Under the pieces are notes generated by a model. It was given only the letters and a program-made list of their open reading frames with translations, was not told the DNA's origin and made no database searches. The position numbers were made by a program, and so were the translations under genes. A stretch of DNA of 52,563 bases, filler included, from Catajapyx aquilonaris (taxonomy: Eukaryota), in assembly GCA_000934665.2 (NCBI GenBank). It is 2 parts of 2 records of this genome, joined end to end, with 100 filler letters (N's around TTAATTAATTAA, not from the genome) between each part and the next. Parts side by side here need not be neighbours in the genome. Positions count along the whole stretch, not along the records: positions 26,343 to 52,563 come from JYFJ02005235.1; 1 more part is not named here. One strand, written 5' to 3'. Positions 5,001 through 48,539 of the stretch are shown here, piece by piece. The stretch's first letter is position 1, and every line of letters starts with the position of its first letter.

Positions 5001-5593
5001 GGGGTCTTCTCGTCCACAAGTGTGGGGGATATTGTGTGTGCAGGGGGGTGATATTGGAAATTCTGCTCCCCCCCCCCCCCCCCCCCCCCNCCCCTTTATC
5101 CGAACCTTCCTTCCTTCCTCCCACCCTCCCCTATACCTACGTTTTAGTGTTGTGATATACCGAGCCAATATCCTCTATTCCTATCAGAACAGCGGCCATA
5201 ACCTGTACAGATTGGAGAGCCCCAGCTACCAGCAACTTTATAACTTCCTATACCTGCAGCTAAACCGGTTTGTGCCATTTGGTCCGGATAAAAGCCCGGG
5301 GATTCTAATTATTTACGTCCCTAAGGTTGACCTCGCCTGCAATATTACCGCATAAATATCCTCCGGAGGCTTAAGATACTTGGGGCTAATCTGGTTCTCA
5401 GTTTGGAGGAGAAGACTCTACATGGGTTAGGGTATTGTACTTATCAAAATGTAAGTAATGTTGCTCATAATTTCTGGGAATTATGAGAAATGAGGGGGCT
5501 GTATTTCATGCTAAGCAGTGGAACCTGTGGAAAACTTAGCCCTAATCTCACCCATGAACATATTGTTGACCACTAACATCTGGTGGTTCCAGT

Positions 5594-24310: not shown

Positions 24311-25495
24311 TTATATATTTGCAAATATGTTCCTCTCGCGAGCTTCATACAACAGCGGTATAAGTCTTCCGACAAACTTCGGATTAGTGTAGATCTTCTT
24401 GAACTCTTCTTTGCGTTTCAAAGACTCGACGTTGTCCTCCGTCAACGTTGACAAGTCCGGTATATTGGCAGCGTCCATAGTAATCATCGGCAGCACAAGG
24501 CATCCAAATATAAAACCAAAGAGGTAATGTTCATTATATTCTTTCAGCAGGCACTGCAGAGTAAATTTAGACGAATCCACATCAGCGTCGTTCAGGTACG
24601 ACACAAACGCATCATGGTACGCTTCGAACAGGTCATCCAAGTGCTCTCTCCGCACCTCAGCAGTGGTGCTGGTGCAGAACAGATACGCTAGGTCAAGGGT
24701 ACGTGACCCCGCACGTGATATCTGATAATCCACCATCTTAACCTCCTGTGCTTTTCCTTCCTGATCGCACTTGAACAACATGTTGTTCACCCAGCAGTCA
24801 CCGTGGCAAACGACAGCGAACCCGTCATTGACCTTTTCGACCTGTTCGCGACATGCCTGCACAACGCCATAAGGTTTCTTGAGCAGTTTCTTCATCCCCT
24901 CAGCCACGTCGCCAAAATAACCCATCGCCTTCACCACCTCCATAGTGGCCGCAAAATGCTGGTTCATATACATCACCTCCTTGTTCTTATCCGGATCGGT
25001 CATCCTCTCCTTCAAGAACGGAAACTTATCCAACAGCATCGACTTATTCCCTTTTGCAAACAAATAAGACATGGCGTGGAATCGGGCCAATTCGACCACC
25101 ACCAGTTTGCAATGGTCGTAATCCAAACCCTGTATCCGGTCCGCCATTTTGAATCCAGATCGCTTCAGATTCTCCATCAATATGAAATCATTCTTTCCAT
25201 CTGACATTCCATAATAGAACTTGGGATAAGCGGAAAAGGCGCCCATTTTGACTCCACGGTCCGCCTGAAACTTGGCTAAAGAGGGCAGCACATCTTGATA
25301 AATATTTAGCTCCTTGACAAAGGCTTGCAAATGATCCAGCATTGCCTGACGAAACGGATTGTTGGGGATGCACTTGGCCATGATGGAGTAAGAGGTGGAT
25401 TTGCCGGATTTACGGGCTTCTATCTCTACAGCATACAGGAAGGCCAGGTAGTTGTCGCCGACGTTGGAGCCTGGTGTTACTTCAACCTTGGTTAT
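24311..25495 (-). CDS. Ecdysteroid kinase-like (EcKL / CHK kinase domain) protein. Large terminal exon of 394 codons plus stop; first exon not located
   Basis: Acceptor CGCCAG at 25496 leads into ITKVEVTPGSNVGDNYL. Family motifs FILMENLKRSGFKM, LARFHAMS, VCHGDCWVNNMLF, MVDYQIS and DLAYLF are present. Confidence 0.92.
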   Translation of the reverse strand: MTKVEVTPGSNVGDNYLAFLYAVEIEARKSGKSTSYSIMAKCIPNNPFRQAMLDHLQAFVKELNIYQDVLPSLAKFQADRGVKMGAFSAYPKFYYGMSDGKNDFILMENLKRSGFKMADRIQGLDYDHCKLVVVELARFHAMSYLFAKGNKSMLLDKFPFLKERMTDPDKNKEVMYMNQHFAATMEVVKAMGYFGDVAEGMKKLLKKPYGVVQACREQVEKVNDGFAVVCHGDCWVNNMLFKCDQEGKAQEVKMVDYQISRAGSRTLDLAYLFCTSTTAEVRREHLDDLFEAYHDAFVSYLNDADVDSSKFTLQCLLKEYNEHYLFGFIFGCLVLPMITMDAANIPDLSTLTEDNVESLKRKEEFKKIYTNPKFVGRLIPLLYEARERNIFANI

Positions 25496-26242
25496 CTGGC
25501 GACAGAAAATGTTGCATTATAAAAGAAGCTGGTGCATATTTTAAATTTGCGAAATTATACCCTGGGTAGTTCAACTTGAGTCGCTTTAATGTAAAGAAAG
25601 GTATGCAACAATCAAATGGCATGTAACATGTAGTTGAAGCCCGCACCCAATTATTGCTCAGAACATGTGGCTGAGATGCGCCTAAATTGCTAATTGTGCC
25701 TCTAATCTAAGCAGTGACCAAAGGATGACTTTCCTGCACCCCAACCTATCTATTATGAAAGTGATGTTTAAAAGAATAACTTCAATATTTATGCCTTAAT
25801 CCCAATGAAGCCGCCAAAAAACACAATTGGGCCAGGAAACCGATGCATATTTTAATCATCGTGGCACCAGGTTATTAGTTAATGCGTTTAATTGCTGATG
25901 CCTAAATCCCATAGGAAAAAGTAAAATATTAACGATCCTACTACACTACATAGTACGGGTCATTAAAAATACAAGTGTTACATCACTCCCAGCACGCGAC
26001 TTCCTCACGAAAAGCAAGGTCATTGCACACTATACATGGTTGCCAAATAAGTAATTACCAGTGACAGCTGGAACCCCATGTTCTTCTAAATATTCTCGCC
26101 TAAGAAAAGTTTCCATGCACACTATTACACTTCACAAAGCGATGCTCCTAATAATAATCATAATCATAATCATAATAGTAATAATATGGACACTTTGTAT
26201 AGTTTTTTTTTTAAATTATGGAATTGTTAGCTGAAGACACTA

Positions 26243-26342
26243 NNNNNNNNNNNNNNNNNNNNNNNNNNNNNNNNNNNNNNNNNNNNTTAATTAATTAANN
26301 NNNNNNNNNNNNNNNNNNNNNNNNNNNNNNNNNNNNNNNNNN
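26243..26342. other. Assembly gap with artificial six-frame-stop linker (N44-TTAATTAATTAA-N44)
   Basis: Exactly 100 nt and symmetric, with TTAATTAATTAA at 26287-26298. Confidence 0.95.
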
Positions 26343-31000: not shown

Positions 31001-34000
31001 GATACATCCGCTTCCACAATTGGTGTCAATCGTGGCCACTCATGTGCCATCACGTGGTATGGACGTGTATGTGTAATGAGGAAGCTTCCTTTTCTTGGTT
31101 GTAATCTCAGAACAAGCAAACGGACACGGGTTCACGGATCGATCACACGTACTTGAAATAGAGTAATAGATATGTTTATCTCAGGAGGTGCTCGATGGGA
31201 GGGATAAAATGGAAGGGGGGGAAAAAAAAGTTCAACTCGTGTCGAACAGGAGTGTATAAACCTTGAGACGGATATTGCAATGTTGTGTGTGTGTGTTTTT
31301 TTAAAGACCGGTTTTGCAGGATTTGCAAATTTTTTTGGAGCACATACAAGGTGGTTTGTCACCATTGTGAACGTCAAAGGTGGAGCAGAAAAAACAGAGA
31401 TAATAATTATCACTGATCATGCTAAGGATTTTTGTTTGCTTTTGAACCGTTTTGAAAGCCTATGTTTGGTAACGATGTTTCTGAAACTAAATCACATCTG
31501 TACAGCACAAAATTATCCAGGTGTTTACTGCATAAGTTTGAACTCGTTAATGATACACCCTGTATGTCCTTCGAGTGAATGGGACTAGTTAAGTAAGTTA
31601 CAGGTTCGTTGCCAATCAGGTTTTCTGGCCCTTTATTTATTAGCCAAAGAAATGTAAACAACTGAGAGCTGTCATTTATATTGCGACGGTCCTGTAATTT
31701 TTTATTCACAAAAATGTCAATTACATGGGAGCGTTCACTTCACATAAAAAAAGGTTGCCAGATTAATTTCCGGGATTGTTTGTGCCATCAATCGTGATGG
31801 TTGGGTTCCAAGTCCTTCCAATCCAAAGTCTCTGCTTGTGCCCGTATCAAAGGTCAACGATTTAGCAGGATCAAAGTGTATACAGGGGGGCTTTCTTGGC
31901 AAGTAATTTTGCTGATTATGTCCGGATTACTTCTTTATATATATAAAAAAAGATAAAATTGGACAGCGGCCTCGTGTGACGAAAAATTCGGATCTGATAT
32001 TTTTTTTGTTATTGAATGTGTAAAACACAAATTTTACGATCGCGTCCATATATATATATGGCTATGGTAATCATATAATCTTTACAACTGATGGTTACTC
32101 TATTATGCAGCACCTTGTCCTGATATAGTCTGCCTGGCATGGTGCACACACGTCAATGAATAGCAAATTAGCTGCATTGACATGCTGATTCCCAAAAAAA
32201 ATATTTCGCAATGTATTAATTTTATTTCCAGATGTTTGCTTCCGAACGAGTTTCCCAATAACGCGACTTACGAGCTGACACCAGAGCAGCTGAACTCCAG
32301 CTACCCTTGGGATTCTCTGGCCCAAAAATGGTCGCAATGCAGCTACCTGGACCAGAACGGTACCGCAAGATCCTGCGAGGAAATGGTGTACGACACCTCC
32401 AAGTACAAGAGCAGCGCAGTCATAGACGTAAGGACAACCTCTGTCAATTATAATTATTATATGTAATACATATAACATTTGTTGTCAGTGGGGAATGACG
32501 TGCGAGAGGTCGGTGATTCACGCGACTGCCCAAGCATTGTTCATGGTCGGTGTCCTCCTGGGGTCAATCGTCTTTGGAGACCTTTCCGATCGGTAATAAT
32601 CAATCGAATTGCGCAGACAAGAAAGACTTAATTGTTTGACCTCTTTCTGTGTGAAAATATGTAAGGTATGGACGTCGACCGGTGTTCTTCGGGTCGCTGG
32701 TACTGCAGGTGGTGAGCGGGATATTGGCAGGGTTGGCTCCGGAGTACATCTCGTTCGTGGCGGTACGTATTCTGGTCGGAGCAAGCACCTCGGGAGTCTT
32801 CCTGGTGGCGTACGTCATTGGTAAGGAAGCTGTACACGGAACACGATGACACTCTACCCAGAATGTGCCGAACACAGGTGTGGAGCTGGTGGGTCCGAAC
32901 CATCGCCTGTTCACCGGTACAGTGTGCCAGATATTCTTCAGCTGCGGGTACATGGTGACGGCCCTGTTTGCGTACCTGATCGACGACTGGAAGATGCTGC
33001 AGATCGCCTTGTCGCTTCCGGGTCTTCTCTTCCTCTGCTACTGGTGGTGAGTCCGAGCTCTTCAGCATGTTTTAATTGCCCCACCACAATTGATGTTTCC
33101 ATCACAATAAGGTTTGTGCCGGAGTCCATACGATGGCTGATGTCCCAGGGAAGAAACGAGGAGGCGGTGTCGCTCATCCGGAAGGCAGCGGCTGAGAACA
33201 AGGTGTCCATGCCGGACGAGGTGTACGACAGCATCCTGAAGGCCGAGGCGGACGTCGAGGTCAAGCCGGCCGCAGTGGTCAAGAAGGCCAGTCTGCTGGA
33301 CCTCCTCAGGACGCCCAACATGAGGAAGAAGTCTATCAACATCTTCTTCAACTGGTTAGCAATTAAGATCCATATATGTATACAGAATGGAGGACAACTG
33401 GACAAGTGTGTCTCCGTTTCAGGTTCGTGAACAGCGGTGTGTACTACGGCCTGTCTCTGAACACGTCCAACCTGGGCGGAAACGACTACCTGAACTTCCT
33501 GATATCAGGTGCTGTGGAGATACCGGCGTACCTCTCTGTACTATTCACTCTGAACATTTGGGGCAGGAAGTACATGCTCTGCGGGAACATGATCGTCGGA
33601 GGCGTCGCTCTGCTCTTGACATTAGCAGTACCTGATGGTATGTTCAAAAAAAAAGGTACAAAAAAATATGTCCCAATTGTCTCATCCGCATTATTATTTT
33701 TTTGTTCGCAGATCTTCCAGTGCTGACCATAACCTTAGCCATGCTGGGCAAGATGGCCATCACAGCTTCGTACGGCATCATCTACATATTTTCGGCCGAG
33801 CATTTTCCGACCGTGGTCAGAAACGTCGGTATTGGAGCCAGTTCGACAAGTGCTCGAGTTGGAGGTATCCTGGCTCCGTACATCATCCTGCTGGTATGTA
33901 TTACAATATGGCACACCAAAAAAAAATTTAGAAGCAAAAAAAAACTGCAAAAATTCGCAAAAACCTGTTTGCATTTTATTTCCACAGGCCGATTTCTGGA

Positions 34001-35744: not shown

Positions 35745-38700
35745 TTAATTCCGAGCTTTTAATTTTTTGGCAATTGCAGCCACCAATCCAGCTCCTTTAC
35801 CACTTCCATCCTCAGCTAAAAATAGCTGAAACTATTCAAAAAAAATAAAAAGTGGATTGAAAAAATAGGATCACGCCTGAAAAAAATGATTTTTCGCTTA
35901 CCTTCTTTCCCGGAGCCATTCTGCTAATGAACTGAGTCATTAATTGCTTCAGACGTGGATGATACTTAAAAAGGGAGCCATCGACTGCGATCGTGATCTC
36001 CTGGCGATCTATGCGGTTCAAAACGCTGGACAAACCTGTTAAGCATAATTCGCACATTTTTTTTTTTTACAAGAGATGCTTCGATTAATTAAGATTTAAA
36101 TTATCTCACAAATGGAAACGAGAAGAGCGGCTCTGGTTGACACGACGCTGGAAATGTGCTTGACAATGGTCATGTCATCCTCTCCGAAGGTCAGGCTCAT
36201 GTCTTGCAGGATTTGGGTAATGTGCTCTGATGAGTTGTTCAGGGTGTCTCTATGGAAGAAAGATTTTTTTAAATGTGAATCACACTCAATAAAGTTCCTG
36301 AGTAAAGTTAGAAAGTGTAAGAAATTTCATATTGAACTAATTAATAAAGCAAGTTATTACAACAGTAACAAAATAGGAGTAGTGACCATTCATTACATGT
36401 CAAACTTACTCTTCAATTTGTGAGATGTAACTGGAATGGAAGCTTCCGTGAGTTAGAAGCTGCTCGGTGGCGATGCCGCTGAAGATGGCCTTGTCCTGGG
36501 TCAGTTTGACCAGAATGACCCTGACAATTTCGCCCAGGTAAGTTCCGGCCACGTATTTTTCAAACCTGCATAGAACATATAAGTCACAGTCTAAATTCGA
36601 GAACTATAGAGTCATACGTACGTAAATGAATTGACTAGCAATGAGCTGTTGTCCACGTCTCTATCAAAATCCGTCTTGATAAAGTCCAGAACTCCGTTGT
36701 CACCAAAAGCACCCCATTCAATATCTATGATCACCTGTATTAAATCATTAGTTACAAGTGGATAAAAATATTCTAAAAGCAAGAATGACCTCTTTGGCTC
36801 CGCGGTTGTCCTTCCACTGCCTGATCCTGTCTGCTCTCTCGATATAACATGCGTTGCATCCACTTCCGAGGATGAGTCCCACTGCGCATCTGTGGTCCAG
36901 GAAGGCTCCCTGGACTAATGTTCCAGTGGTGTCGTTCAGGACGGCCACCACTTCCACCTGGAGGTCGCCTCGACGCTTCAGGGCGTCGCTCAGCATCTGA
37001 GACGCGTTCTCTCCGACCACGTCTGGGCAGTTGAACGTCTTCGTCCAGGACAGGAGGATGCCCACGTCGATCCCTCTGTGCTCCATAGGGAAAGAGAAGG
37101 TGAATCCTGAGAGAAGATAAAATAAATATTAGCACTAAAAAGTGTTGGCCATTGCAATTCATCATTAATACATGTAACACTTGTTCATGTACTGAGAAAA
37201 CATTTTATTAAACTTATTGTGACCAAAACAATAATTTTTTTTCAGGTGCTATGAAATTATGGGCTAGGTCAACATTCAATGACATGCATTGTAATGTCAC
37301 ATTTTACTCCGAAGAATCTTATCCAGCACTTAGTACATTATTCACTTATCAAGAAGGCTATACTTCCGCACTTATTCGTGTCTCGAATGCTGGCTGAAGC
37401 AATAATTCTTTGTCTCAGACAATTGCAAAAACTAGCCACAGAATGTGGCCTTGCACACATTATCCAATTTCATGTGACATATACTGCTGTATCATAAACA
37501 ACAGTTAATATTCGAGGCAGTTCTTGTTAAAATATATTATTATGATGGAGGAATGATGGTCTGACCTAAAGGCAAGGTTCGATGAAGCATGTTCTTTTCC
37601 TTCAGAAAGTCGTGTATACATTCGGCCAGGAAATCAAACAGAGGCTTTCCAGGTCCTTTACGAAGATGGTCCGCCACATGATAGTACTTTAGCTCCTCTC
37701 GAGCTATAGCACCACTCTCAAGGACCAAAAGACACACTCGGAAGTTGGTTCCTCCAAGGTCTAGCGCCAGGTATTCGCCTTCCTCTGTAAACAATATCAT
37801 TTAAATGTATTTTGATGAGTAAAGCGTGCAATGATGAATGTACCTGATCCGTCTGGAAGTTCAGGTATGTATGTATTTTCCATCTGGAGCGACGAAGGTT
37901 CTCCAGCGAGACCTCTCTCCATCTCTGATTCAAAGACATCTCGGATTCTCCTTTGAGTATCAGCATTCAGTTTCAGTCCTGCCAGCAGCTGTTCAACCTG
38001 CAGAGATGGTTCAAAAAATAATAATATAGTTCAAGTGAGACAGAACATGTAATTTAGTTATCGCGACACTACCAATAAAGCTAGATGTCAACCGACAAAC
38101 AAACGTGAGGCTGTAATTTTACCGAGTTATAATTAGAAAGCAGATCAGTTTACATACAGATTGAATCAGATCTCGTCAAGTTTCGCGCGCCCAATTCGTT
38201 ACAAAAAAAAAAACGTCTTTCTGACCACTAACGACTTCCTTTTCATCTATTGAAACGTATCTAGATTAAAAGGAGTGTAGCAGAAAAAAAAAGTTTTCTC
38301 TCTTCAGTCAAGATGTATAAACATTGTAGCGCAACACGACCTCCAAATGCAATCGATCGAATCAGAATAGTCTATTGATTCTGCTGCGCGTAGTTTTAGA
38401 ACCTGAGATTCACCCCGTTACAATTTACTGTGCTTTTACATTTGTTGGTAATTTATATCTAATTTCTATATCAAATTTTACAAGTTTGATTAAGACGATT
38501 GTTGCGCCAGGTTCAAATCCATGCTGGGAAAACAATCCGTTGCTGTCACATCCTATACAGTAATGAGGAAGTGTTGACATTTTCTGTGCAGTATTACATA
38601 ACACGTCTATGACTCTTAAAGAGGAAAACATATGTAAAAAAAAATTCGCACGGACTTCCATATAATTTGTGAGGCGTGACCTCGAATGCGGCAATGTGCC

Positions 38701-39421: not shown

Positions 39422-41440
39422 TCAAGCTTTGGCAGCTGCAGCCACAAGAGCAGCTCCTTTTCCGCTTCCTTCTTCCGCCAGTATCAATTCAAACTGCGGA
39501 AAAAAAACATAAGGTGCAAATTTCTGCACACTTTCGCACACCATGAGAGCACTTACCTGTCTTCCAGGACACATGTCGCTTATGAACTTGTACATGTATG
39601 ACCTGAGTCGTGGATGGTACTTGAAGAGTGAGCCGTCGATCGCGATTGTCGTTTCAGGTCGAGCCATTCTCTCCAGCAAGTGTGAGAGATGAATCGATGC
39701 AACAATGGCCGTCCTTACAGATATGAGTTGACATATGTGCTTCACGATTGCGATGTCATCTTCAGTCGGACTCAATTCCAGATCTGTCAGAAACTTCCTG
39801 GTGTTTTCAGTCTTGTTGTTCAAGTTGTCCCTTGAAAATAATTCGGATTATGACACAAGCATCAACATAAAAATTGACTAATTGTAAATATTTATCTAAT
39901 AAATAATAGCCATGTACTTACTCTTCAGCTTTGGATATATCTGGTGCCCCAAAACTCTCAGCAGCTGTCAATTTGTCAGATACTTTCCCATTAAAAAGTA
40001 GCCCTTCTTTGGCCAGTTTTATCGTCGCAAGGCGTAATAATTCGCCATAATATGCTCCACCAATAATCTTCTCAAGTCTGCAGAAAGAATATTGGTAAAC
40101 CACTAAAAATGAGTGCACATAAATGCTAATCAGAGTAACATTTAGTTAAAAGTACTTGCTACAGTCTCTGACTGTTCTGAATATTTTATAGTAAGCTGCT
40201 TCACTATGTACACATAGTACAAGCAATCACGTACGTGAACATATTAGGCTCGATTGATTTCTCGTCAATTTCCAGATCAAATTCAGTCTTGAAACTATCC
40301 AGCTTCCCATCCTCTCCTAAAGAGCTGCTCTCTGTGTTCACCACCACCTGAAGACCAAAAATCGTATTAAGAAACAATTCGCCCAAAGTATTAGTTAAAT
40401 GATAGCCGACAATGACCTTTCCTGTTCGACCTTTCCCTGCATGACCTCCCTTCTTAATCTTGTCTGCATCTTCCAGATAGCAAACGTTGTATCCACTCCC
40501 CAAGATAACTCCCATGGCGCTTCTCTTGTCCTGAAACGCTCCTTGCATCAGGGTTCCTGTGGTGTCGTTCAGGATGGCCACCACCTCCACATTGACCATC
40601 CCTTGTCTTTTGATGGCCTCCTTCAACAAAAGGGCAGCGTCTTTCCCAACAACATCTGGACAGTCGAATGAATTAGCCCAGGAGATAAGAATACCAGAGT
40701 CGATCGCCATTTGGTGGAATGGAAATGAGTATGTGAAACCTACGGGGAAATAAACGTGTACAAAAAAAAAAGGTAACGTGCTGAGACAATATTAAACTCG
40801 GTGGACATACCAAGTGGCAGCTTTTTCTCCAGAAGGTTCCGTTTCTTCAAGAAGTCGTGGATTGATTCGGCCAGAAAATCAAACATTAGAACTCCAGGCC
40901 CCTTTCGCAGCTTGGAAGGAACCTCGTAGTATTCCAGCTGAACATCCTGTTCTTTTCCAGCACCTCTAAGCGTCAGGAGGCATACTCGGAAGTTGGTTGC
41001 ACCCAAGTCTAATGCCAGGTATTCTCCAACCTCTATACAAAAGGAGTCGATTTTTGTGACAGCATATACACTTTAATAACGAACACAACTGACCAGATCC
41101 GTTTGGAAGCTCCGAAATGTGTGTGTTTTCCATCAGCATTCTTGTGGGCTCCCCTCGCAATCCTTTTTCCAGCTCATCATTAAAGATGGTCCTGAATTGT
41201 GTCCTCCTCTTCTGATCCCATTTGAATCCCTTCAATTCATTCTCCACCTACATAAAAAAACATAGTCAGACACTAACCTTGAACTGATAGTCATGCGAAC
41301 TCGGCCTGATCGAAAGTGAAACCGCACAGGATTTTGATCTATACCGTACTGCTACATGTATATAATATTAATATATGACAAACCTTATCCGCTTTGGACT
41401 TGTCCTTCAAAACAAGGGACGGGCAGTATTCTGGTTCCAT
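39422..41440 (-). CDS. Divergent hexokinase paralogue (HK-B), about 456 aa. Exons 41440-41384, 41247-41094, 41032-40811, 40739-40417, 40347-40235, 40077-39922, 39830-39557, 39493-39422
   Basis: Phase-consistent, 1371 nt. Motifs LALDLGATNFRV, GFTYSFP, WAN (for WTK), ILNDTTGTL, NTESS, LEK, IDGSLF and EEGSGKGA. Confidence 0.93.
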
Positions 41441-42172
41441 TGCTTCAAAATATATGTCCGTGCAGCTCAATGAATCAAGCTCGACTGACGTGTTAGCCCT
41501 GAATTGTGAACAGAGGGCGTCACTTTAGTTGGTTGACTGACCTACAAACCTTGTCCTCTATTTGCTTTTATTGAAGCCGCGACCACTATAAGTCACGAAT
41601 ACGCTCCAAGTGCGATTATGGTATATCAATAGGCCTACTTACCTGGCAGCATAATTCAAAACCGTTATGTAACTACAAGTTGGCAGACCTGCTATGCTTA
41701 GTAAAGTTGCGTGTGGTTGCGTGCAACCCACTCTTTTTGTTTCAAAAGTCTGCAGCATTATCAGAGGTGATTAATTACTGCGTTTCTGAGCTTGGTTGCT
41801 AGCACAGTCTATTGTTTGCAAATTAGGGCACGGTATATTTACACCGTACCAAGCACAGCAAATTGGTGCCTTTTCATTCAGATCAAGCCCTATAGTTATG
41901 ATACATTATTACAATAATGTTATTGGTACTTCTCCAACGATTGTACCGGAAACCGTCAATTTAGGGAACATAACATGGAGATTAAACGAATTCTTGAAGT
42001 ACTGTACATCATTTATTCGTGTATAACTGAAATCCTGAATAATATCCATCCGAACTTGTAGGTTGTAATTTTCTTACACACGACACTACGACGCTGTTTA
42101 ATTAAGACAATCAAACAATCAAGCTGGTGATATATTGCCCAAAACTGAAGAAAGTGCCACAATATATAGTTC

Positions 42173-44259
42173 TCACGCCTTCTTTTTCTTCTTAATAATG
42201 GCAGCAGTCAACGCAGCACCTTTAATCGTGCCATCCTCAGCAAGTATGATCTCAAACTGGAAACGACATTATCATTTCGACTTGAACACTGCAATAGAAC
42301 TCACATCGCTTTACCTTCTTTCTGGGGACCAGTTCGTGCAGGAAAGTGTGCAGATACGAGTTCATTCGCGGATTCTTCCTGTACAAGGCGCCATCGACTG
42401 CAATTGTCGCTTCATTGCATCCCATCCTCTTCATCAAGCATGCGACGCAGATCGAGGCGATCATCGCTGTCCTTAGGCACATGAGTGCACTCACGTGCTT
42501 CACGATCGCAACTTCTTCGGCTATCTTCGCCGCGAGACCAAAGCCTCCCGTCAGATTGGCCTTCGTCCTGCCAGCGTCGTCCAGGTTGTCTCTTTTTTAT
42601 TTTATTTGGGAGAACACTCTGAGAGTTTATACATTCGTGAGACAGCTCCAAAGGACATACAAACATCAAGGGCAGCTCAAAATTCAGCCCTAAAAGCTTG
42701 TCATTCGACAACCTGGACATACTCACTCTTCAGCTTCCAGGACGAACCGCATGTCTAAACTGCCTGGAGTCTCCAGATTGAGCTTGCATCCAGAAAATCC
42801 TAACTCGTTGAACAGCTTCAACAAGACGAGACGCATCAACTCGCCCAAGTGAGCGCCTCCAGCAATTTTATCCATCCTGCCCACCCAAAAAAAATAAATG
42901 GATGTTACTATATACGACCCTGAACTCTGACCCGAAACAGTAGCTTACGTGAAAGAGCTGGGCTCATCCGACTTCTCGTCCAGCTCGGTGTCGAACTCAG
43001 TCTTCAGATAATCCATGTTGCCTTCGTCCCCTACAAGGCCACACTCTGTGTTCACAATCACCTGCAGGCACACGAATAGTATGTGTTATAGCTAGGTCAT
43101 TAGGTCAGATTGCCCACTTTAATTATTGTGACCTTATCGCCTTCACATGTGTACTCTTTGTACAGACTGGATTTGTCCAAGTAGCAGATGTTGTAACCTG
43201 TCCCCAAAACGAGTCCTATGGCGCATTTGGGGTTTTGAAAGGCTCCTTGTACCAGTGTGCTTGTGGCGTTGCTTAGGATGGCCACCAACTCCACTTTGGA
43301 CAGATTCTTTCGGGACAGGGCCTCGCTCAGGACGAGGGACACGTCCTTTCCGATAGAGGCGGAGTCCTTGTACCGGCTGCCCCAGGTAATCAAGATGCCC
43401 GAATTTATCTCCTTTTGGTAGTACGGAAACCCTAAAGTGAAACCTATACGAGAAAGAGAGCCAACCCGTTGTCAAAATTTGGCAACACTGTCCCCTGGAC
43501 TTAGTGCGTTATGCCACAACAATATGGCGCGCATCATCTCTCTCTGCACACTACTGCCACTCTCAGTTACTAATGCACGTTGGTGATGAGTCAACGTATA
43601 AAGGGACAGAGTGACACCTAAGATAATTTTTGTACATGATGATTAATATTGCCTACCCAGAGGTAGCTGCTTCTCCAAAAGGTTTCTCTTGCTCAAAAAT
43701 TCGTGGAGGGAATTAGCTATAAAGTCGAACAAGCTGCTGTCCGTGGCCTGTCTCACATCTGGAGGCACCAAGTAGCTCTCAATATCCACATCGGGCTCGG
43801 AATCTCGTCCTTTGAGAACCATGAGGCAAACGCGGATTCGACTCGAATCCAGCTCTAGTCCCAGGTACTCTCCGACCTCTGAAAAACATGACTCTTATAT
43901 AGTTACATATCCTTGTGTCGGAATAAAAAGTACGGGCCCTCACCAGACCGATCTGGAAATTGCGACACGTGTGTGTTGATCATCAGCATCGTTGTCTCTT
44001 CCTCCGGATTAAAACCTTTAGCCAACTCGAGCTTGAAGTCCAAAAAGAACCTCATCATCGTATCCTTACTTAAGCTGAATCCTTTAACAATATCCTCAAT
44101 CTGCATTGGAAAACATGTCCCGTTCATGTAATTGTTATACGGGTAGGTACAATTACTCACTTTTTCCTTCCGCTGTACGTCGTCCAAGACAAGTTCCGGA
44201 TGACGCAGAGCTTGATTAGTCGGCGGTTTGCTCGACGAACACCCGCATTCGTCCGCCAT
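42173..44259 (-). CDS. Hexokinase-like protein, predicted catalytically inactive (HK-C), about 470 aa. Exons 44259-44161, 44100-43944, 43878-43657, 43443-43133, 43061-42949, 42876-42727, 42591-42315, 42256-42173
   Basis: Phase-consistent, 1413 nt, no stops or frameshifts, same intron positions as HK-B. Motifs altered to LGLELDSSRIRV, GFTLGFP, WGS, ILSNATSTL, MDK, VDGAL and EDGTIKGA. Ends KKKKKA. Confidence 0.88.
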
Positions 44260-44286: not shown

Positions 44287-44328
44287 ATTACCGATGGCAA
44301 CAATCGGAATTTGCGTTTCTGTCGCAAC
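44287..44328. promoter_or_regulatory. Two X-box-like (RFX) motifs in the HK-C/IFT88 divergent promoter
   Basis: ATTACC-GAT-GGCAAC (44287-44301) and GTTTCT-GT-CGCAAC (44315-44328) are imperfect matches to GTNRCC(N0-3)RGYAAC. Confidence 0.55.
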
Positions 44329-44631
44329 CGTTCATTTAGTTAACAGACATTCGAACATTTTTTTTATTCCTTTTTTTTAAAAAAACCAAGGTTCAAAAAC
44401 GCCCGCGCTTTCAAATTCATCAGAATATCGAACACTCCCGGCAACTTCGCCCATCAAGAGGAAATAGCGAATCGTGAATATGCGGCTGCCGAAAATTCAC
44501 TCCGGCTACCAGGCCAAGGTTCGTGTTCGAATTATCGATCTTCTGAAGTTCAATCAATATTATTTTCTTGTTTCGTTCTGGAACGGCCATTTGTGGTGTG
44601 TTTGCAGTCGACGGAGGTCAGCATGGTGGCC

Positions 44632-47600
44632 ATGATGGAGCAGATGCGGCTTGGAGCCACGGGCCCTCCTCCTGGTGGTGTAGCGGCACTGGCCAAGAAT
44701 AAGGAGGAAGAGGACGACCTGTACTCCGGCTACAACGAGTATCCAGAGGCACTCAACACCAAGGACCTGCATCAGGACGAGGGGTTCCAACAGGCCATCA
44801 AAACCAGCCATGGAAGGAGGCCCACGGTATTATAAAGGACAAACAAACAAACAAACAGACGGACAGACAGACAGACAGATGGACAGACAAACAAACAAAG
44901 TGTGGTAGCCATGGTAACAAACAAACAGACGGATAGACAGACAGACAAACAGACGGACAAACAAAAAGTATAGTAGCCATGGTAACAAACAGACAGACAG
45001 ACAGACAAACAGACGGACAGACAAAAAGTATAGTATCCATGGTAACAAACAGACGGACGGACAGACAAACAGACGGACAGACAAAATGTATAGTAGCCAT
45101 GGTAACAAACAAACAAATGGACAGACAGGCAAACAGACGGACAGACAAAAAGTATAGTAGCCATGGTAACAAACAAACGGACGGACAAACAGAGGGACAG
45201 ACAAAAAGTAGTAGCCATGGTAACGAGCAAAATCCAGCCATGGAAGGAAGCTTACGGTAAGAACAAACAAACAAACACGCAAGCCATGGAAGGAGGCCAT
45301 GGGGTCACAGTAAGTACAAACAAACAGACAGACAGACAAACAAACAAACAAACAAAAGTGTAGTAGCCATGGTAACAAACAAACAAATGAACAAGCCATG
45401 AAAGGAGACCTACGGAAAGAACAAACAAACTAACACACAAATCCAGCCATAGAAGGAAGCCGACAGTACGAACAAACAAGCCATGGAAAGAGACCGATGG
45501 TAAGAACACAGAACAAACAAACAACCAGACAAAACTAGCCTTGGAAGGAGACCCACAGCGAGAACAAACAAACAAACAAACAAACAAACAAACGAATGTA
45601 TGTATGAATAAACAGGCTAATAGTTGTCTGATTTTGTCTAACGTTGCAGGCCACACCGAGGGTACCGAGTACTGCGATGCGGCTTGGGACTGCGTCTGGC
45701 GTAAGTACTGTTCGGTACGGTTGCATCGCAGTTATTGTGATATGAACTTTTTGTAGTACCGAGCTGGTGCGACTGGGACGGGTTTGCGGACTGCAATGGC
45801 GTCACGTGCGGGCATGCAGACCGGGGATATGGATGTTGCCAGGCCGATTACAGCGGTGCGTGGAGCTGGGTACACGTCCAGTCAGAACAGGACGCCCGGA
45901 CAGAAGCTGTTCGATCCGTTGAACCTGGCAGCGAAGGGGACGGGGCCTGCGCCGCCCTTGGAGCTGAAGCTGGATGAGAGTCCGGAGGGGAAGATACGGC
46001 AGCTGGAGCGGAAGGTGAACGACTTGATTGAGGAGTCAATTTTGTTTGCCAAGAAGGGCGATGCGCGGACGGCGTTGGAGAGGGCCAAGGAGGCGTCCGC
46101 TAAGGAGAAGTCGCTGATCCGCATGCGGGACCAGATTGGGCTGAAGGACGGACATAATATGGATATGACGTTCAACGTTGCGTTTAATCTAGCCTCTGCG
46201 TACACGGTCAACGAGATGTACGTAGAAGCGCTTAGCACCTACCAGGCAATCACAAAGAACAGGATGTTCAGCAACGCCGGACGTCTGAAGCTGAACATGG
46301 GGAATATTTATTTCAAGCAGGGGCAGTACGCAAAAGCCATCAAATTGTATCGGATGGCATTAGATCAGGTACGCTCTTCATCCGTCAAGTGTACTTATTT
46401 TGTAATAACATGTCGTTCCTCCAGGTTCCGAACACGCACAAGGAGCTTCGTCTGAAGATAATGCACAACATCGGCTCCTTGTTTGTGAAGATGGGCCAGT
46501 ATGGCGATGCAGCCACGTCCTTCGAGTACATAATGCAGGAAAAGCCGGACCACAAGACCGGCCTGAATTTGATCCTCTGTTACTACTCGCTTGGTGATCG
46601 TGAGAAGATGAAAAAGGGATTTCAGGTCTGTTGCGTAGTTAATCGAGAGAGAGAGAGAGCTTCATGTATTGTAATTGCGTTTCTACAACGTAGGCCATGT
46701 TGGAGGTGCCTCAGTGCTTGGGACGCGACGACGAAGACAAGTACCATCTGGTGGGTGGCGAGGACCCTCTCCAACGTGCAATTATAGAGACAGTGAAAAA
46801 CGACAGCTACAGCCAGTTCCAGCGCAGGCGGAAGGAATCGACAGTGTACTCCGTGCTCACTTCGGCCAAGTTGATATCCCCTGTGCTGGGCTCGCCTGCG
46901 GTGGAAGGCAACGAGAACGGAGAGGGGCACGACTGGTGCGTGGAGGCCGTGAAGGCCAGCGGGGGGCCATTCAGCAACCTGGCTGGTGACCTGGAGATCA
47001 ATCGTGCTGTCAGCTTGATGAAAAAGCGAGACTTCGTTTCGGCGGCCGAGACGCTAAGGGCATTCGAGAAGAGGAAGGAGGCGAAAGTGGCCGGAGCCGC
47101 GGCTACCAACCTGACCTTCCTTCACTTTTTGCAGGTGATTATGGGACATGCCGGTACACAATCGAACCTGAACTGACCGCCAAATTAATATCGCAGGGTG
47201 ACTACGAGCAAGCGGAGAAGTACGGCGAACAAGCCCGACAAGCCGACCCGTACAGTGCCGGCGCATTTGTGAACCTGGGTAACTGCGCTTTCATCCACGG
47301 CGATGTCGAAAAGGCGCGTGAAATGTACGTGGTGGCCCTCGAGAACGACTCCTCCTGCGTGGAGGCTCTCTTCAACCTGGGGCTCTCGGACAAGCGGATG
47401 GCCATGTACGAGGAGGCCCTGCAGAGCTTCGAGAAGCTGCGTCACATTGTGCACAACCACCCCCAGGTCTTGTACCAGGTGGCGCACCTCCACGAGCTTA
47501 TGGGCGAGAGAGAGCAGGCCGTCGAGTGGTACCTGCAGGTCCTGGGAGTGGTGGCGTCCGACCCAAGCATACTTCACAGGCTCGGACAGCTGTACGATAA

Positions 47601-48539
47601 GGATGGGGACAAGCAGCAGTCGTACCACTATCACTTTGATGTGAGTACTTTGCATCATAAATTACAGTCACTTACAGTTAGGCCGCGTTTACATATGAGC
47701 AATTTGATCAGTGATACCGGAAAGTAACAATGTAAACGTGGCCTGCAGCAGTGCTGATCCGTAAAATTGCGTAAAGTGGTCAATCATTCATTTAAAAATC
47801 ATGTGCTAATTACTGCTTGTTTCACCCTAGTCGTACCGTTACTACCCGTCAAACCTCGAGGTGATTGAGTGGCTGGGATCCTACTTCGTGGAGATGCAAG
47901 TGGCCGAGAAGGCCATTGCTTACTTTGAGCGTGCAGCACTCATGCAACCGGATGATCCTCGTTGGCCTTTGACTGTCGCCAGCTGTCACAGACGAAGTGG
48001 AAGCTACCACCGTGCACTTGAAACGTACAGGTGAGCACATATGACGTACACTTGGGCATACAAATGATTCATATAAATGCAATTTGTGTCACAGGCGAGT
48101 GCATCGGAGGTTCCCCGAGAATTTGGAGTGCCTTCGATTCCTAATCCGCATCTGCAACGATATGGGCCTGAAAGAAGCGGCGGACTACGCAAACGAGTTG
48201 AAGCAAGCGGAAAAGGCAAAGGCGGCCAGAGAAAGGGCTGCCAGCTCCAGGCCTGGGTCACGTCGAGTAGGGTCAAGGTCAGGGTCGGCAGCCAGCGTGG
48301 CCAACAGCGCAGGATTGGTGAGAAGCACGCCAGGTTCGGCCCTGAGCTTGGGACGCGAGACCAGCCTGAGTCTAGACGACGACGAAGATTTCCTGGCGGC
48401 TAAGACGAAGGAAGTGGACGCCAGTTACAGCGACCCAATCGGGCCACTGGTGGAGAGGCCCAAGACCAGCATGGGTCGGGGGGTCAAGCCGGAAGAGGAG
48501 TTTGCTGAGGGAGAGGGACAGGATTTGCTGCCCGAGTAA
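44632..48539 (+). CDS. IFT88: Intraflagellar transport protein 88 (polaris/OSM-5/NompB), about 862 aa. Exons 44632-44826, 45650-45700, 45757-46368, 46425-46625, 46694-47134, 47197-47640, 47831-48030, 48095-48539
   Basis: Phase-consistent, 2589 nt. Motifs EDDLYSGYNEY, FQQAIKTSHGRRP, RPITAVRGAGY, TPRs with AIKLYRMALDQVP, FPENLECLRFLIRIC, DASYSDPIGPLVERPKTS and C-terminal LLPE. An in-frame ATG at 44623 is an alternative start. Confidence 0.97.
44836..45595 (+). repeat. Compound minisatellite in the first IFT88 coding intron: (ACAA/ACAG)n spacers with ~60-bp X-box units and degenerate copies of the exon end
   Basis: GTAGCCATGGTAAC at 44905, 44973, 45093, 45157, 45211 and 45363, and GTATCCATGGTAAC at 45033. 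About six AGCCATGGAAGGAG...ACGGTA-like copies lie between 45234 and 45560. Confidence 0.95.

Follow-up and report, generated by a model that had tools for sequence, protein, structure and literature searches.

The window analyzed here, a stretch of 52,563 nucleotides from the genome of Catajapyx aquilonaris (assembly GCA_000934665.2), carries a hexokinase-family gene, designated HK-C, on the minus strand from position 44259 to position 42173. HK-C is probably, though by no means certainly, a protein-coding gene whose product would be a selectively maintained, catalytically dead hexokinase pseudoenzyme acting by binding. Two features place it with the hexokinase-like pseudoenzymes: the conserved sugar- and ATP-binding residues are gone, and comparisons confined to its paralogs indicate purifying selection on the gene. 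Because the residues for glucose phosphorylation are lost, HK-C would most likely work by binding, and the evidence of selection suggests that some function has been retained; its expression and regulatory role we infer. A preliminary description of the locus had proposed a retained nonenzymatic protein, which, given the selection evidence, appears to be the best reading of the gene. That interpretation was largely right, although less novel than claimed.

The intact eight-exon open reading frame (ORF) reported in the preliminary description was recovered in full. Joined, the exons amount to 1413 nt and encode 470 amino acids followed by a TGA stop codon, and all seven introns, which range from 58 to 213 nt, are of the GT-AG type. 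The start codon at position 44259 has an A at −3 and a G at +4, and no further in-frame ATG was found 5′ of it up to the first stop codon. The donor of intron 4 (GTCACA) is weak. On the 3′ side of the gene, signals of the AATAAA/ATTAAA type are present on the minus strand at positions 42102 and 42017. The protein does end in KKKKKA, as had been noted; the terminus is encoded by AAG AAG AAA AAG AAG GCG, and since AAG and AAA codons are mixed, the tail is not a homopolymer run or an artifact.

HK-C belongs to the hexokinase family. When exons 2 to 8 were run against Pfam as separate peptides, six of the seven matched. The matches were collinear, running through Hexokinase_1 (PF00349) in exon 2 (43944 to 44100; family positions 2 to 52, E = 5e-4), exon 3 (43657 to 43878; 57 to 122, E = 1.9e-11), and exon 4 (43133 to 43443; 135 to 200, E = 6.9e-13) and then through Hexokinase_2 (PF03727) at positions 2 to 23, in exon 5 (42949 to 43061; 35 to 69, E = 2.5e-7), exon 6 (42727 to 42876; 74 to 122), and exon 7 (42315 to 42591; 132 to 216, E = 8.5e-12). 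Both families are present, in order and at full length. No Pfam match was obtained for the 27-residue peptide of exon 8 (42173 to 42256), which carries the adenosine motif region EDGTIKGAA, the KKKKKA tail, and the TGA.

A search of the window with the HK-C exon peptides (tblastn) revealed two more hexokinase loci on the same strand, making HK-C the last of three tandem hexokinase paralogs within 9 kb. The sister paralog, HK-B (39425 to 41440, minus strand), is intact, with eight exons encoding 455 amino acids. Its first exon is homologous to that of HK-C (44161 to 44259; 33 codons from the ATG), and the two have a P-x-LVL-x-D...K pattern in common. The canonical paralog, HK-A (35745 to 37997, minus strand), was resolved as 439 amino acids that begin with exon 2. 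The first coding exon was sought in the upstream stretch to about 39400 and not found; a 43-nt candidate internal exon there (∼38178 to 38220; ...KEVVSGQKD followed by GT) has no ATG. One extra intron interrupts HK-A within the region that corresponds to exon 7 in the other two genes, and the remaining intron positions are common to all three, as expected of tandem duplicates made at the DNA level. The amino acid identities are 52% between HK-A and HK-B, 45% between HK-B and HK-C, and 37% between HK-A and HK-C, with the HK-C alignments spanning 430 to 446 residues. The C terminus of HK-A is basic as well (KKLKARN), and a nuclear role for the basic tail of HK-C, as was once suggested, is unsupported. 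That the HK-C reading frame is a product of chance or of annotation is so improbable as to be practically negligible, given 470 codons spread over eight exons with the same boundaries as in HK-B and HK-A, the collinear Pfam matches, and the similarity to HK-B over 446 residues.

HK-C has lost residues in the motifs that bind sugar and ATP. Every canonical hexokinase motif is present in HK-A, and each of the motif changes listed in the preliminary description appears in the alignment of HK-C with it: LDLGGTNFR has become LELDSSRIR, FTFSFP has become FTLGFP, WTK has become WGS, LNDTTGT has become LSNATST, FEK has become MDK, DGS has become DGA, and GSGKG has become GTIKG. The phosphate-1 loop in exon 3, for which the consensus is D-x-G-G-T/S-N-x-R, is degenerate and reads E-L-D-S-S-R-I-R, with the Leu and the last Arg alone unchanged. 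When this exon is aligned with residues 526 to 597 of human HK1, the substitutions are D532>E, G534>D, G535>S, T536>S, and N537>R, with R539 retained. Exon 4, which holds the sugar-binding core (FTLGFP, WGS, LSNATS, and an intact GTGYN), aligns without gaps to HK1 residues 600 to 690 and carries S603>G, T620>G, K621>S, N656>S, D657>N, and T658>A; the residues corresponding to G679, T680, G681, and N683 are retained. The earlier claim that the catalytic Asp and key ligand residues had been lost is upheld by these two alignments (D657>N, K621>S, N656>S, S603>G, D532>E, G534>D, and G535>S).

The remaining exons show both retention and loss. The phosphate-2 motif GTGxN is preserved as GTGYN, and in exon 5 the Glu of NTEWG (E256 of glucokinase, E708 of HK1) is kept within NTECG. 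In exon 6, an Asp lies opposite the Glu of the E-K motif when the peptide is aligned to glucokinase chains, and in exon 7 the DGA of AVDGALYR lies opposite the DGS/DGT of HK1. Neither DGS nor the adenosine motif GSGxG is present in HK-C, where they read DGA and GTIKG. The description of the losses as strictly selective was overstated: the equivalents of T680, N683, E708, and R539 are kept, many other sites have changed, and the HK-C branch is four times as long as that of HK-B in the tree described below.

To gauge how exceptional these residues are, 1.84 billion cluster representatives were searched exhaustively by HMMER with exon 4 of HK-C as the query, which gave 907 matches at E ≤ 0.001. 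The best 150 of the 907 are 30 to 50% identical to HK-C over exon 4, and 91 of these 150 are entries of 380 to 600 amino acids, which were taken as full-length hexokinases. The catalytic-Asp column, which is Asn in HK-C, is Asp in 91/91 of the full-length hexokinases and in 154 of the 155 aligned segments from the best 150 matches; the sole other segment is one of two hexokinase segments in a 708-residue protein. A regular-expression survey had hinted at a few hexokinases without NDT, and this was overturned by the alignment, in which all 91 full-length proteins keep the Asp. The catalytic-Lys column is Lys in 89/91 full-length hexokinases, Ser in HK-C, and Asn in HK-B; the glucose-binding Asn is present in 88/91 and is Ser in HK-C. 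Within FSFP, neither the Ser nor the middle Phe varies (91/91 for each). Across the 29 columns that are at least 95% conserved, HK-C is off consensus at 11, HK-B at 5, and HK-A at 1, and 10 of the 11 changes in HK-C fall in ligand motifs (the eleventh is I>V). For comparison with glucokinase, we take its residues to correspond to those of HK1 in the usual way (e.g., D205 to D657 and K169 to K621).

The roles of several of these residues have been described in glucokinase. In PMC2706991, hydrogen bonds to glucose are assigned to Asn204, Asp205, Glu256, Glu290, Lys169, and the main chain of Phe152, and contacts to ATP are assigned to Thr82, Asn83, Thr228, Ser411, and Lys169. The same paper suggests that Asp205 serves as the catalytic base and Lys169 as the acid, reports that the K169A protein remains folded with its activity abolished, and describes partial loss of glucose binding in the natural variant K169N. 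According to a citation in PMC7403626, catalysis depends crucially on Lys621 and Asp657. Judged from its sequence, HK-C is without both catalytic residues and three more of the residues that contact glucose, and its phosphate-1 and adenosine motifs are mostly gone, whereas the phosphate-2 motif and part of the sugar pocket are retained. Glucose phosphorylation by HK-C is predicted to be very unlikely.

It is distinctly unlikely that HK-C is still an enzyme, whether as a very weak hexokinase or as a divergent kinase that acts on a new substrate or through an unusual catalytic arrangement. Such an enzyme could draw on GTGYN (T680 and N683), the Glu of NTEWG, the DG of DGS, and the phosphate-1 Arg, all of which remain; the D>N and E>D substitutions alter shape little, and purifying selection implies that some function persists. 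Nevertheless, the proposed Asp base and Lys acid are both replaced, and the K169A change alone suffices to abolish glucokinase activity (PMC2706991). Furthermore, two glycines of the phosphate-1 turn have become Asp and Ser, the adenosine motif has Ile in place of Gly, and a residue other than Asp is found at the catalytic column in none of the 91 full-length hexokinases. The glucokinase variants K169A and K169N are altered at the same column as HK-B (Asn) and HK-C (Ser); unlike HK-C, however, each is a lone change, made in the laboratory or found in disease, to an enzyme that is otherwise canonical.

That HK-C is a noncatalytic hexose sensor, which binds sugar without turnover, would be a special case of a pseudoenzyme and seems quite improbable in this specific form. 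The equivalents of N683, E708, and T680 and the Phe of FSFP that contributes a main-chain contact are retained (roles as given in PMC2706991), and the Asn in place of Asp and the Asp in place of Glu could both still form hydrogen bonds. In addition, AtHKL1 of Arabidopsis is predicted to bind glucose with reduced affinity, according to PMC2755033. Conversely, four glucose contacts are altered in HK-C (the equivalents of K169, N204, D205, and E290), and the K169N change in glucokinase already costs part of the glucose binding (PMC2706991).

HK-B is intermediate in its departures from consensus. Its five changes at the 29 near-invariant columns include the catalytic Lys; the motif changes are WTK>WAN, GG>GA in the phosphate-1 loop, FSFP>YSFP, and NTEWG>NTESS. 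The K>N change in HK-B is the same as that of the glucokinase K169N variant. By its sequence, HK-B may be a low-activity enzyme, an enzyme of altered specificity, or another noncatalytic copy. Because HK-B and HK-C are both off consensus at the catalytic Lys, the Thr preceding it, one Gly of the phosphate-1 loop, the FSFP Phe, and the Trp that follows the Glu, with different residues in the two proteins, their common ancestor was probably already relaxed at these five positions.

A careful maximum-likelihood tree was built from 31 rows, comprising the three proteins of the window and the 28 best-scoring matches. Rows were limited to 380 to 600 residues and to alignments of at least 330 residues, which left out 122 of the 150 matches. 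HK-B and HK-C are sisters, with an ultrafast bootstrap of 100 and an SH-like approximate likelihood ratio test (SH-aLRT) value of 99, and their shared stem is 0.44. The end branches are 1.07 for HK-C, 0.27 for HK-B, and 0.27 for HK-A, so that the HK-C branch is about four-fold that of HK-B. Since the end branch of HK-B matches that of HK-A, HK-B is strongly constrained despite having no catalytic Lys. With HK-A as the reference, 88 residues are unique to HK-C and 29 are unique to HK-B (chi-square, 29.8). All three proteins lie in a 10-row clade (99/98) with arthropod-named sequences, and nemertean, annelid, and mollusk sequences lie outside it; membership in this clade supports an arthropod-type origin of the cluster. 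Within it, HK-B and HK-C group with HK-A and one library sequence with weak support (76/91), in a tree that holds no Drosophila Hex-t. Of ten matches for which names were obtained, those closest to HK-A were a JGI/IMG protein (63% identity), a thrips hexokinase-2 (55%), and sand-fly (50%), isopod (48%), and copepod (45%) sequences.

Orthologs of HK-C were sought in protein libraries and metagenome contigs. None of the best 150 of the 907 HMMER matches groups with HK-B or HK-C. When longer proteins were searched by word index with exon 4 of HK-C, none of the 167 candidates was significant; a word-index search with HK-B exon 4 gave five matches, the best being a bee hexokinase at 58% identity, and no ortholog. 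In the metagenome contigs, an exact 40-mer of HK-C exon 4 had no match, and a degenerate-pattern scan returned 229 pattern matches, among which there were no relatives.

Several lines of evidence indicate that HK-C is kept by purifying selection that preserves the reading frame. The proportion of synonymous differences (pS) by the Nei-Gojobori method (NG86) is 0.67 to 0.75 among the three paralogs (0.67 between HK-B and HK-C), which is saturated, and four-fold degenerate sites differ at 0.55 to 0.56; the saturation means that the duplications are old. HK-C nevertheless lacks the marks of an unprocessed pseudogene: it has no stops or frameshifts, 14/14 splice dinucleotides are intact, and a ratio of nonsynonymous to synonymous rates (omega) of 1 is rejected. 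About 4.1% of the single-base changes possible in HK-C would create a stop. When random substitution was simulated on the HK-B or HK-C coding sequence (2000 runs each), the ORF survived in at most 0.5% of the runs at 0.1 substitutions per site and in 0/2000 at 0.2 or more. True survival would be lower still because the simulation ignores indels and splice sites.

Rate estimates point in the same direction. By NG86, the nonsynonymous distance (dN) between HK-B and HK-C is 0.457 and omega is 0.27, values that are rough because synonymous distance is saturated. Our own three-taxon codon model (GY-type, F3x4, one omega per branch) gives an omega of 0.23 for the HK-C branch and rejects omega = 1 (twice the log-likelihood difference [2ΔlnL], 13.7; 1 degree of freedom). 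In this model the HK-A branch runs to its bound, and the usable result is the rejection of neutrality rather than any individual omega estimate. The GC content at third codon positions (GC3) of HK-C is 0.63, compared with 0.41 in its own introns and 0.425 in the window, so the third positions have not drifted to the background composition. Finally, at columns where HK-A and HK-B are identical, HK-C has altered 26 to 27% of the well-conserved ones versus 47 to 57% of the variable ones. The near-invariant class is no better protected, with 9/25 altered versus 20/76 in the next two classes, which is a trend and not a significant excess. This pattern is what relaxed catalytic sites in a retained fold would give.

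The chief competitor to a maintained pseudoenzyme is a relic, in which HK-C was long under selection and is now unexpressed or recently released, an early unprocessed pseudogene without a stop as yet; we consider this unlikely, although it carries more weight than the other alternatives. A number of results count against maintenance, and some of them fit a relic directly. HK-C has the longest branch of the trio and three times as many unique amino acid changes as its sister (88 versus 29). The acceptor of intron 6, an AG after an A-rich stretch without a pyrimidine tract, is weak. Function may have been lost recently, since ∼30% of the simulated ORFs (28 to 32%) survive at 0.02 neutral substitutions per site and 6 to 7% survive at 0.05. 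The selection tests rest on three paralogs with saturated synonymous sites; the codon model does not reject a common omega for HK-B and HK-C (2ΔlnL, 0.06), nor does it distinguish a higher omega on the HK-C branch from a higher overall rate there. Likewise, no ortholog of HK-C was found in the protein libraries or metagenome contigs searched, although this blank may reflect poor sampling of the lineage instead of true absence. Opposed to a relic are the uninterrupted frame and splice sites, the rejection of omega = 1 for the HK-C branch as a whole, a GC3 that has not relaxed toward the 0.41 to 0.43 of introns and window, and structural columns that are still protected relative to variable ones.

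As a maintained pseudoenzyme, HK-C joins a known class of hexokinase-like pseudoenzymes and probably arose independently of the others. The preliminary description held that no arthropod equivalent had been described, and this is contradicted by the Drosophila melanogaster tandem pair Hex-T (Hex-t2) and Hexl (Hex-t1, CG33102). In a 2025 micropublication (PMC11836677), the "like" suffix denotes a predicted pseudoenzyme, and the noncanonical Drosophila paralogs are described as almost all testis restricted and as possible noncatalytic modulators. The pair has germline-specific expression, arose inside the dipteran Hex-C cluster, and has 1:1 orthologs only as far as D. virilis (PMC7560327). Like Hexl, by description, HK-C is an arthropod paralog adjoining another hexokinase gene. 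Unlike Hexl, with its origin in the dipteran Hex-C cluster (PMC7560327), HK-B and HK-C branch beside their own HK-A, which suggests an independent origin. Beyond the Drosophila case, no arthropod hexokinase pseudoenzyme was found in the open-access papers searched, and a 2026 survey of metazoan hexokinases (PMC13012417) mentions arthropods once and pseudoenzymes never.

Similar proteins are known outside the arthropods. HxkC and HxkD of Aspergillus nidulans are hexokinase-like proteins without some of the conserved sugar- and ATP-binding residues, as is HK-C; genetically they are negative regulators of XprG and extracellular proteases, and one is nuclear and the other mitochondrial (PMC3821154). 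These fungal proteins, together with several plant HKLs, have an extra stretch in the adenosine-binding domain, according to the same source, whereas HK-C has none relative to HK-A and HK-B; the insertion is not a universal criterion for hexokinase-like pseudoenzymes. HxkC and HxkD belong to another kingdom and are of independent origin. AtHKL1 to AtHKL3 have no catalytic activity and share ∼50% identity with AtHXK1, which is an active sensor; HKL1 regulates growth (PMC2755033). They resemble HK-C by description, the latter being 45% identical to its nearest paralog, but are plant proteins and not tandem products of one cluster. The inactive N-terminal halves of vertebrate HK1, HK3, and HKDC1 have lost catalysis and are regulatory, as stated in PMC13012417. 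HK-C would likewise be a hexokinase-fold unit derived by tandem duplication that has lost catalysis; the vertebrate halves, however, are fused to an active half, whereas HK-C is a separate gene. Moreover, the N-terminal half of HK1 (residues 152 to 241 aligned) retains the Asp, Lys, Asn, and Ser, all four of which HK-C has lost.

A plausible history can be outlined under the premise that HK-C is a maintained pseudoenzyme. HK-C would have originated by tandem DNA duplication inside an arthropod-type hexokinase cluster, and the common ancestor of HK-B and HK-C would already have been altered at five conserved positions, the catalytic Lys among them. HK-C would then have lost the catalytic Asp, the glucose-binding Asn and Ser, and the Glu of FEK (now Asp), together with most of the phosphate-1 loop and the adenosine motif, while the remaining two-lobe fold stayed under purifying selection. 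The product would most likely be a regulator or scaffold that uses the hexokinase clamp and transfers no phosphate to glucose. Its candidate ligands include a canonical hexokinase such as HK-A, whose activity it might modulate, a hexose (bound weakly) or hexose phosphate, held through the retained pocket Asn, Glu, and Thr, and an unrelated partner. Modulation of a similar kind has been reported for an inactive trypanosome hexokinase within hetero-oligomers. Dead glycolytic paralogs are increasingly seen as regulators, and few animal examples have been characterized. HK-A, HK-B, and HK-C form a natural series that bears on the order in which catalytic residues are lost and on the role of the fold without catalysis, and the tandem hexokinase/hexokinase-like arrangement of Drosophila would have at least one independent counterpart in another arthropod-type genome.

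The gene upstream of HK-C encodes an IFT88-like protein with TPR repeats (44623 to 47724, plus strand) and is oriented head to head with it, with an ATG near 44623. Its TPR exons (45757 to 47724) match Pfam TPR families and the IFT88 chain 8bd7_A (E = 2.5e-36), and its N-terminal exon, which carries a DDLYSGYNEY-type motif, is presumably of IFT88 as well. Because the two ATGs are ∼364 bp apart, HK-C and the IFT88-like gene probably have a common bidirectional promoter region. A candidate X-box for RFX, ATTACCGATGGCAAC at 44287 to 44301 on the plus strand, agrees with what we take to be the consensus but is at chance level: the pattern occurs 33 times in the window versus 26.5 expected, the count of 33 was reached by 17/100 shuffles, and the site is no evidence of RFX control. 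A broader scheme, which we hold to be decidedly improbable, is that the three hexokinases form a graded module (the canonical HK-A, the slowly evolving HK-B without the catalytic Lys, and the dead HK-C) in which the noncatalytic copies hetero-associate with active hexokinase or sense hexose and thereby tune entry into glycolysis in a specialized cell type. Given the promoter region in common with an IFT88-like cilium gene, this cell type could be ciliated sensory cells or sperm. If true, the module would be an independent parallel to the testis-restricted metabolic pseudoenzymes of Drosophila.

Other features of the window were noted in passing. Positions 44838 to 45593, which closely follow the first coding exon of the IFT88-like gene, hold a minisatellite (∼60-bp units, five to six copies, 80 to 87% matches) and GACA/AACA microsatellites, and owing to these repeats there are long spurious ORFs on each strand. 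N occurs in two runs of 44 bases (26243 to 26286 and 26299 to 26342) and singly at 5090, 19018, and 30869; these assembly gaps or masked bases all lie outside the hexokinase cluster. A weak Sugar_tr match (E = 5.4e-5) marks a sugar-transporter fragment at 32825 to 33427 on the plus strand, ∼2.3 kb from the end of the hexokinase cluster. An ecdysteroid-kinase-like gene at 24314 to 25516 on the minus strand consists of a single exon with an uninterrupted ORF of 401 codons and matches EcKL (E = 4.8e-72), a family typical of arthropods.

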